A DNA stretch of 64,000 bases. It comes from an uncultured Bacteroidota bacterium (lineage in GTDB: Bacteria > Bacteroidota > Ignavibacteria > Palsa-1295). Under the pieces are notes generated by a model. That model was not told where the DNA came from and ran no database searches. It saw nothing but the letters and a program-made list of their open reading frames with translations. Below are positions 37,362 to 39,554 of this stretch, piece by piece (within the stretch, counting starts at the first letter, position 1; each line of letters starts with the position of its first letter). The stretch lies in assembly GCA_963702215.1 (NCBI GenBank), contig OY969726.1, positions 987,331 through 1,051,330 of the forward strand. The letters are read 5' to 3'. The position numbers were made by a program, and so were the translations under genes.

Positions 37362-38222
37362 TTAGCGTGGCAGGGACTCGTGAAAACAGTTCTTTGCAAG
37401 TTCCAACACCCGTTCGAGCGCCGGTGTCATGCCTTTGAAGGGATGTTCCGCGCCGAATGTGTGGCCGGTCTGGGGAATTAGTTGCACGGTGGTTAACGGG
37501 CATTCAGCCGCTTGGGCAATGGATTCGGCTTCTTCAGGCTTCGTGGTTAAATCCTGTTCACCGGCCACGAGGAGGAGCGGCTTTTGAAAGTGCGCAATTC
37601 GTTTGGCGGCGGCGAGAATATCGAGCCGCTCCCGGTTTCGTTCCAGATCTTCGAGCAGATCGACATTTAGCCGCATCACCTGCTTCGTTCGGTGATTCAG
37701 CACCTCGAAGTACCCAAGTTCTCGCCATTTTGCTTTCTGCCGCTCGCTATACCGATTGAAATTACTGACCGGCGAGAGCGCCATCACGGCTCGCACGAGC
37801 CGGTCTTCCCCACCGGCCAGAATTGCCATCGCAGCTCCGCGCGAATGCCCCATAAGGCCGATCGCATTCGGATCGAGTTCTTCTGGCGGGAGTGGAACGG
37901 AATTTAATTCCGAAAGCGCGCGCACGACATCTCCCACTTCATCAAGTTCTCGCGTAAAGGTGTTACGCGCGAAGCGATCGAGTTCCGTAAAGTTCAGCAA
38001 GTCGTCGCCAATGCCGTTCTGAGAAAAATTGAAGGCAATCGTGATGAATCCGGCGCGCGCAAGTTCCACCATCATGGCGGGAAACGGGCCCCAGTCCTTG
38101 AAGCCTTTGAAGCCGTGAAGGAAAACGATCGCAGGCTTTGCCGTGCCGGTCTTCTCGTAGCGTAAATCGGCACGGAGGATTTCACCTTCGCGGGAATAGA
38201 GATGGAAACGCTCGTGAATCAT
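37362..38222 (-). CDS. Alpha/beta hydrolase
   Basis: [11 protein letters not shown], nucleophile elbow GHSRG, GEQD, GHTF. Confidence 0.9.
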
Positions 38223-39554
38223 GGTGTGGCCACGCGTTCAAATGTATATTGCCCGCTCTCCGTATGATCCACGCGCACGGTATCGCCTTGCGAAATTTCA
38301 CTGGATAATAATTTCATCGAAAGTGGATCGACAATGGCCTTTTGTATCACGCGTTTGAGTGGGCGCGCGCCATAGGCGGGATCGTAGCCGCTTTTCGCGA
38401 GCCAGTCCCGCGCATCGTTGGTTACTTCGAGGTGGATGCCATTCTTCTCCGTCATCTCTATCACGCGGCGAAGCTGAATATCGACGATCTTTCGAATATC
38501 GCTCTCCGAAATTGGCTGGAACATGACGATCTCATCGACACGATTCAGGAATTCGGGCCGGATCGTTTTGCGAAGTTCCGCGAGCAGGAGGGTTTTCAGG
38601 TTCCCAAGTATCCGATCCTTATTCTCCTCCGTCATTTTCTGCATCTGCTCCGTAATGAGATTGGAACCGATGTTGGAAGTCATGATGATGATCGTATTCT
38701 TGAAATCGACGGTGCGGCCCTGCGAATCTGTGAGGCGGCCATCATCCAGAACTTGCAGCAAAATATTGAACACATCGGGATGCGCTTTTTCGATTTCATC
38801 CAACAACACGACGCTATATGGCCGGCGGCGCACGGCTTCGGTAAGCTGCCCGCCCTCTTCATATCCCACATATCCGGGCGGCGCGCCAACGAGGCGCGAA
38901 ACCGAAAATTTCTCCATGTATTCGGACATGTCGATGCGGACCATCGCATGCTCATCGTCGAATAAAAATACCGCAAGGGAGCGAGCGAGTTCAGTTTTGC
39001 CCACGCCGGTGGAACCCAGGAAAATAAAGCTCCCAATCGGGCGATTGCGGTCATGCATCCCGGCGCGGGAGCGGCGAATCGCATTCGACACAGCAGTCAC
39101 CGCCTCATCCTGCCCGACGACCCGCTCATGCAGCCGATCTTCCATTTTCAGCAGCTTCTCGCGCTCGCTTTCGAGCATCCGCGCGACCGGAATTCCCGTC
39201 CACTTCGCCACCACTTCGGCAATATCTTCCGGACCCACGACTTCCTTCAGCATCTGATGATCCTTCTGAAGTTTTTCAAGCTCGTCCTGCTTTTTCTTCA
39301 GATCATTTTCGACCTGGGGAATTGTTCCATAACGGATCTCGGCGACTTTCCCCAAATCGCCCTGCCGCTCGGTTTGCTCGGCCTGAATGCGAAGCTGCTC
39401 GATCTCCTCGCGCTCGAGAGCGAATACCTTTGATGAGACTCTTTTCGTGCTCCCAATGGGAACGCAATTGCGTGCGCTTCTCCTGAAGCTCGGCAAGCTC
39501 TTTCTCGATTTCCTTAAGCCGCGTCGCCGTGGCCTGACTGACGGTGGTAGCCAT
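38219..39554 (-). CDS. clpB: ClpB C-terminal half (part of M-domain + NBD2); one frameshift near 39415
   Basis: Starts [20 protein letters not shown]...W..EK; then [54 protein letters not shown]. No N-domain or NBD1. Confidence 0.92.

Follow-up and report, generated by a model that had tools for sequence, protein, structure and literature searches.

We consider it likely that a gene located at 38219..39554 on the minus strand of the window, i.e. the whole stretch of 64,000 nucleotides (64 kb) that was analysed, encodes the C-terminal part of a naturally two-gene ClpB disaggregase, whose two chains are joined in trans through the hairpin of M-domain motif 1. ClpB/Hsp104 is the textbook two-ring AAA+ machine, and engineered truncations and point mutants have served to study the communication between its rings as well as the repression and activation by its M-domain. 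What appears to be new here is a conserved two-gene, two-chain ClpB that is cut inside the regulatory coiled coil, its parts list being that of an ordinary ClpB. The natural, conserved cut falls at the turn of motif 1, beside the repressing-contact residues K431 and E432 (E. coli numbering), and strong selection has maintained it throughout a class-level group of bacteria, in gene arrangements that go from adjacent to unlinked. Such a pair would be a ready-made two-chain system for the study of ring coupling, M-domain regulation and assembly, and a clear case of an essential stress chaperone whose gene underwent fission.

A search of the full text of the literature returned no paper on "split ClpB", none with a relevant tie between ClpB and gene fission, and nothing relevant tying ClpB to Kapabacteria, Ignavibacterium, Chloroherpeton or Melioribacter; an earlier note on this DNA likewise knew of no standard split form at this point. 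Source annotations give the halves no name more specific than "AAA family ATPase" or "Clp protease N-terminal domain-containing protein", and given these generic names genome surveys may score such organisms as devoid of ClpB.

The clpB-C gene and its reading frame

The gene, here named clpB-C, has its start ATG at 39554 and its stop at 38221-38219 on the minus strand, and includes 444 codons once one extra base is removed. According to the ORFs and their translations, to Pfam, NCBIfam and PDB matches and to more than 100 colinear homologues, its product begins in the turn of M-domain motif 1 (E. coli residues ~433-437), continues with M-domain helices 2-4, and ends after NBD2 and the D2-small domain. 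Pfam identified AAA_2 (E 2.8e-69) and ClpB_D2-small (PF10431, E 3.5e-28) in this product, and no domain additional to the ClpB parts, e.g. ankyrin repeats like those of Skd3. The top NCBIfam model is TIGR03346 (chaperone_ClpB, the ClpB equivalog), which is covered over profile positions 468-848 of 853 and scores above the ClpG, ClpK, ClpA and ClpV models. The closest solved structure is that of T. thermophilus ClpB (1qvr), with query residues 10-434 aligned to residues 429-843 of the chain (E 2e-151), and the match to human CLPB/Skd3 is much weaker (E 5e-64; 220 bits versus 507 bits for ClpB). In the structure-database alignment onto E. coli ClpB, query residue 7 corresponds to residue 435, W34 to W462 and Y75 to Y503.

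The remainder of the M-domain (39263..39554, minus strand), comprising the return strand of motif 1 and motif 2 with the Y503 equivalent Y75 (EIRYG), was delimited by this residue mapping and by the AF2 model of P0002, a protein 93% identical to that of the window. The model (pLDDT 79) has a single 61-residue helix at 2-62, further helices at 66-97 and 107-118, and then NBD2; this predicted architecture is that of a ClpB M-domain without helix 1, and the Foldseek matches are ClpB and ClpC. NBD2 (AAA_2; 38528..39043, minus strand, Pfam coordinates) carries the Walker A motif GSTGVGKT, the Walker B motif VVLLDE, the pore loop GYVG and the sensor-1 motif TSN, and the D2-small domain (38270..38509, minus strand) carries the sensor-2 motif GARPLKR. 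In the motif scan Walker A and B, sensor 1, the Arg finger, sensor 2 and GYVG were all present in clpB-C, the motifs lying at residues 180, 248, 227, 288, 332 and 395. The ATPase and pore-loop motifs are intact both in the window protein and in P0432, a member of the complementary N-half family described below, and neither of the two has a match to the ClpP-docking [ILV]G[FL] loop that would mark ClpA, ClpC or ClpX. By its best sequence and predicted fold matches clpB-C is a ClpB, and the Pfam, NCBIfam and PDB results bear out the initial description of a ClpB half-gene that starts inside the M-domain coiled coil and contains a complete NBD2.

The same description had the ATG opening one continuous reading frame, which does not hold for the window as assembled. 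The length of clpB-C is 1336 nt (3n+1); the frame that starts at 39554 stops at 39303 after 83 codons, and its product follows the shared start of the protein for 46 residues and then runs into unrelated sequence, NBD2 being encoded in another frame (ORF 39496..38219, 425 aa). Alignment with L009, L001 and L008 places a 1-nt insertion at 39413..39418 (minus strand), best at 39415, inside codon 47. At this point the extra base turns TCNCAGCGCGAG into TCTCGAGCGCGAG, creating CTCGAG, and the DNA alignment has a single-base gap opposite to it in all three relatives. The base is not within a homopolymer run, and its removal restores a 444-aa ORF that is colinear with all the relatives. Programmed frameshifting was ruled out, since the extra base is missing in the relatives.

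The repaired gene is under strong purifying selection: its dN/dS is 0.03-0.04 against four relatives, the fourth of which (L092) was used only for this comparison, and a control pair of intact relatives has 0.027. Over the first 60 columns the ratio is 0.02-0.04 against the two closest relatives, dS being saturated for the other two. The window gene carries only a handful of lineage-specific substitutions, mostly conservative, and the relaxed selection that had been raised as a possible objection to a functional half-gene is contradicted by these values.

Besides clpB-C, at least three other genes of the window are broken by frame changes. A gene for a PorU-like type IX sortase (1101-5404, minus strand) is spread over three frames (4127-5404, 2035-4395 and 1101-2402); the first two match consecutive parts of PorU models with a junction at ~4250, and the second junction, at ~2330, was read from translations only, the frame 1101-2363 having no Pfam or NCBIfam match. 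In a class-V aminotransferase gene (54303-55473, plus strand) the frames join at ~55050, and in a gene encoding TIR and TPR domains (55595-57446, minus strand) at ~57250. A Kelch-repeat gene (43109-44115, minus strand) is probably also broken, at ~43765. These breaks suggest an error-prone assembly with about one indel per 13 kb. Given that the base is missing from the relatives, that selection is purifying and that other genes nearby are frame-broken, the frameshift in clpB-C is most likely an assembly error, and the gene is probably intact in the organism. We regard as unlikely that the insertion is real and clpB-C a recent pseudogene of this strain, as the break at codon 47 and the position of the base outside any homopolymer run could indicate; against this, the low dN/dS, the few and mostly conservative changes and the intact motifs reveal no further decay, and the frames of other, unrelated genes in the 64 kb are broken at four or more further points, which suggests that indel errors are general in the assembly.

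Two products from other public assemblies look like further assembly indels: P0115 (334 aa) is a C-half shortened by an apparent frameshift, and P0471 (442 aa), an N-half-like product that ends in ...KREKDERFKSAA, may come from a frameshifted full-length gene. Single "split" calls may therefore be artefacts and need checking.

Genomic context of clpB-C

Downstream of clpB-C lies an alpha/beta hydrolase gene (37362..38222, minus strand; identified by sequence, Pfam and relatives), whose ATG lies in a 4-nt overlap (ATGA) with the clpB-C stop. The hydrolase and its overlap are kept 3' of the C-half in the lineage of the window (L001, L009, L092, and beside P0022), and given this conserved neighbour clpB-C and the hydrolase gene are probably co-transcribed. 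On the other side, the AT-rich divergent intergenic region 39555..39671 must hold the clpB-C promoter. In DNA alignments homology with the relatives starts only at the clpB-C start codon, so that this region is not conserved, and the gene upstream of the C-half differs among relatives of the lineage. No conserved promoter or heat-shock element was found 5' of clpB-C, a sigma-70 scan not being meaningful for this phylum. The upstream gene of the window is divergent and does not encode NBD1, as had been noticed before; its product is a BNR/sortilin-like secreted protein.

The ATG of this BNR/sortilin-like gene is at 39672. Inside its 5' coding part, between the start and the signal-peptide core, there is a perfect heptanucleotide tandem repeat, (CACGGCG) x6.9 at 39701-39748, with a Bacteroidetes-type TAtcTTTG box just upstream; a second perfect repeat of this kind, (CTGCGGG) x9, was found at 35950-36012. 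The (CACGGCG) repeat may be a phase-variation switch, because a change in the copy number of a 7-nt unit shifts the frame. The window is rich in genes for secreted proteins, BNR/sortilin-like or IgGFc-binding, that carry a T9SS sorting domain at the C-terminus (17545-19674, 22931-28959, 33311-34693 and 39672-42870), which is consistent with an organism of the Bacteroidota group.

Other observations concern genes located elsewhere in the window. The 599-aa ORF at 31492-33291 (plus strand) covers the large subunit of carbamoyl-phosphate synthase in its C-terminal half only; it begins inside the oligomerisation domain and includes the pre-ATP-grasp, ATP-grasp and MGS domains, and no N-terminal half was found in the 64 kb. 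Here too the gene may be split, or else truncated. Directly 5' of it there is a NikA/RHH-like ORF together with a PemK/MazF toxin, as a pair (30493-31184, plus strand). Two paralogous genes with a TIR domain and TPR repeats (52403-54229 and 55595-57446, both on the minus strand) lie on both sides of the aminotransferase gene, and may be related to defence or signalling.

Complementary halves in relatives

The C-half family was drawn from JGI, ENA, NCBI and Logan assemblies, with contigs of up to 1.88 Mb, and comprises more than 100 protein clusters of 440-447 aa that are 93-65% identical to the repaired window protein. All of them start 6-12 residues before the RLxEIEKEL helix. The sources of these clusters are named as Kapabacteria, Bacteroidota MAGs, "Chlorobi bacterium" and Ignavibacteria, and the short form is also present in a MAG of the Chloroherpetonaceae (L013); in Chlorobiaceae, Ignavibacteriales and other Bacteroidota clpB is full-length. 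As judged from these sequences, the split form is found in soil and sediment bacteria that include Kapabacteria, many Ignavibacteria and some relatives of the green sulfur bacteria. A contig scan with the C-half pattern DMSEYMEK, which is universal, gave among the matches listed full-length ClpBs at no more than 63% identity, save for the split locus of L013. P0020 and P0080 were considered as full-length relatives and rejected, given that they are partial products with a duplicated NBD2, i.e. assembly artefacts. In a neighbour-joining tree of the NBD2 halves the split forms fall in five groups among full-length sequences of Ignavibacteriales and Chlorobiaceae, and because the internal branches are very short the tree does not tell one fission from several.

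The start point common to more than 100 relatives also contradicts an assembly chimera at ~39555, a second objection that had been foreseen. It would imply that a full-length clpB was cut short and misjoined there to unrelated sequence; the upstream sequence is indeed unrelated to that of the relatives and the assembly is visibly error-prone, but JGI, ENA, NCBI and Logan assemblies agree on the position of the start codon, inside long contigs, and elsewhere the N-half forms a complete ORF by itself, closed by a stop of its own. We give this explanation next to no weight.

The earlier note proposed to look at relatives and for a gene that ends in NBD1 plus the first M-domain helix. Such genes were found in relatives, as a family that matches the C-half clusters, and none in the window, where tblastn detected no NBD1 anywhere in the 64 kb. 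The members of this N-half family (436-440 aa) contain Clp_N, NBD1, the lid and the first helix of the M-domain, and end in ...LEIEREALKRE (...QLEIEREALKRE) plus 1-5 residues. Among the N-half matches listed, 181 are 430-445 aa long and have the conserved helix-1 motif IDS[ML]P; in these 181 members hardly any position of helix 1 varies up to KRE, after which comes the variable tail of 1-5 residues. The best 120 N-half matches were nearly all of 436-442 aa, with two shorter fragments. When L097, one of the N-half loci obtained from metagenome contigs as described below, was the query, the N-halves of the Kapabacteria type were recovered, and almost all the N-half matches down to 79% identity were of 436-440 aa (the exceptions being one partial of 425 aa and two longer calls), and from ~74% identity down full-length and partial Ignavibacteriales forms appeared. 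A representative-library search with the N-half returned only representatives of mixed length, at no more than 63% identity.

The aromatic residue of the NBD1 pore loop is Phe (SFRGQFE) in the Kapabacteria-type N-halves P0432, P0460 and P0437; the usual Tyr (KYRGEFE in E. coli) is kept in the Ignavibacteria-type N-half of L004 and in P0418.

Both halves occur in the same genomes, either adjacent, 6 kb apart, or unlinked. In L004, a 67% identical relative on a 1.88-Mb contig, a 438-aa N-half gene lies 6 kb upstream of the C-half; its product consists of Clp_N, AAA and AAA_lid_9 and ends in ...PEELDIIEKKIKQLEIEREALKRELSS-stop, exactly where the C-half resumes. The N-halves of the lineage were sought in metagenome contigs by scanning for the N-half tail peptide followed by a stop, with the CGN arginine codons typical of the lineage, and six N-half loci were obtained. 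In L096 (Ga0187886_1000007, a 306-kb contig) the two halves are adjacent and in different frames (8860-8885): the N-half stop TAA is followed by the 16-nt spacer AAGGATGTGAGGAACA, which holds a GAGGA ribosome-binding-like motif, and by the C-half ATG. The locus as it was right after fission may plausibly have looked like this. In the lineage of the window, assembly ERZ1426530 contains both the N-half P0432, on a 216-kb contig, and the C-half P0022, on one of 66 kb, and the two proteins also share a listing on a 282,157-nt contig; P0022 is 81% identical to the window protein and has hydrolase and IgGFc-binding neighbours, as in the window. P0460 and P0069 share a listing on an 899,629-nt contig. 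Within 10 kb on either side of the C-half no N-half was found in eight further relatives, L004 being the only one in that search to have it nearby. In every member examined the halves are two ORFs with their own stop and start, as opposed to the single polypeptide of ClpB/Hsp104. From relatives at no more than 81% identity we infer that the genome of the window also has an N-half gene.

The earlier note had left two readings, a two-chain disaggregase and a stand-alone NBD2 ATPase; the latter would work without NBD1, as human CLPB/Skd3 does with a single NBD2-like domain. The complementary genes for the N-domain, NBD1 and helix 1, which in relatives share a contig or an assembly with C-halves, support the first and disfavour the second. 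In line with a stand-alone protein, no NBD1 gene is linked in the window or in most relatives, clpB-C has a promoter region to itself and shares its operon with another gene, that of the hydrolase, and the single NBD2-type ring of Skd3 can disaggregate (PMC7343390). Nonetheless, the N-half family has the same phyletic range and co-occurs with the C-half in the same assemblies, and the conserved N-terminal part of the long helix would be left without its intramolecular partner in the ClpB architecture. The product is also far nearer ClpB than Skd3 by the bit scores given above, and is devoid of an added substrate-binding domain such as the ankyrin repeats of Skd3. Furthermore, the isolated NBD2 of ClpB is reported as inactive, probably through a failure to hexamerise, in work cited by PMC7343390. 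A stand-alone function is, in consequence, very unlikely, and the two-chain ClpB is the reading that we favour.

Position of the cut and comparison with known systems

The N-half ends 1-5 residues past the equivalent of E432, and the conserved helix of the C-half starts at about residue 438 (E. coli numbering); because of these two limits the cut is placed, by alignment, in the turn at the tip of the motif-1 hairpin (E. coli residues ~433-437, just after K431/E432). The N-half thus carries helix 1, and the C-half the return strand of motif 1 together with the whole of motif 2. In E. coli ClpB motif 1 spans E410-Y455. Its tip (K431, E432) contacts motif 2 (S499, Y503) of the neighbouring subunit, a contact that keeps ClpB repressed, and DnaK binds the tip of motif 2 (Carroni et al., PMC4023160).

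We propose that fission of an ancestral clpB in this clade took place within the turn that caps motif 1. One of the resulting genes (~438 aa) would encode Clp_N, NBD1, the lid domain and M-domain helix 1, and the other (~445 aa), present in the window, M-domain helices 2-4, NBD2 and D2-small. The two chains would pair 1:1 by rebuilding in trans the antiparallel hairpin that helix 1 and helix 2 make in motif 1, with further hold from the normal NBD1-NBD2 interface, and six pairs would build the usual two-tier ring. DnaK would dock on motif 2, which is wholly within the C-half, and the substrate would be threaded by both ATPase rings. The pairing of the chains, their stoichiometry and the activity of the complex are inferred.

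A more tentative idea, which we consider rather doubtful, is that the break in motif 1 is functional instead of neutral, and that disaggregase activity is controlled by the assembly of the halves. It is suggested by the repressing contact made by the motif-1 tip, by the separate promoters, and by the coupling of the C-half to a hydrolase gene. The amount or the timing of one half would then set the number of active rings; alternatively, the split would tune M-domain repression and the dependence on DnaK, or either half might have an additional job of its own.

When both products are read together, the split form has the same domains as canonical single-chain ClpB (E. coli; T. thermophilus 1QVR), in the same order. 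The C-half is 50-55% identical to canonical ClpB over M-domain helices 2-4, NBD2 and D2-small, and shares with it the catalytic and pore-loop motifs, the Tyr of motif 2 (the Y503 equivalent) and the absence of a ClpP loop. In contrast to canonical ClpB, the split form is broken in the motif-1 turn and its two genes are often unlinked; at the break the N-half has a tail of 1-5 residues, and the C-half a leader of 6-12 residues.

A natural ClpB-derived chain that is shorter than full length is also known from ClpB80/ClpB-deltaN, the N-terminally truncated isoform produced from an internal start of the same gene. That isoform is devoid of the N-domain only and keeps both NBDs in one chain, whereas the chains of the split ClpB are complementary and come from two genes.

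Human CLPB/Skd3 resembles clpB-C in having a ClpB-NBD2-like AAA+ domain and D2-small without NBD1. However, Skd3 is distantly similar, has ankyrin repeats and no M-domain, and works alone, whereas the C-half keeps three of the four M-domain helices and has a partner gene for NBD1; clpB-C does not combine a single NBD2-like module with a non-AAA substrate-binding domain, as proteins of the Skd3 type do.

The nearest counterpart is engineered. The split T. thermophilus ClpB made in the laboratory by Beinker and co-workers in 2005 was reportedly cut between the M-domain and NBD2. According to PMC7343390, ClpB was reconstituted in trans from NTD-NBD1-MD and NBD2 proteins (Beinker et al. 2005, J Biol Chem 280:37965, cited therein and also in PMC4239642), and the assertion of the earlier note that ClpB needs N-NBD1-M-NBD2 in one chain was, on this account, too strong. 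As in the natural form, NBD1 and NBD2 are on separate chains, and the engineered pair gives chaperone activity, so that a covalent link is not required. The natural split differs from the engineered one in that it is conserved across a clade and is cut inside the M-domain, so that the coiled coil itself would be shared by the two chains.
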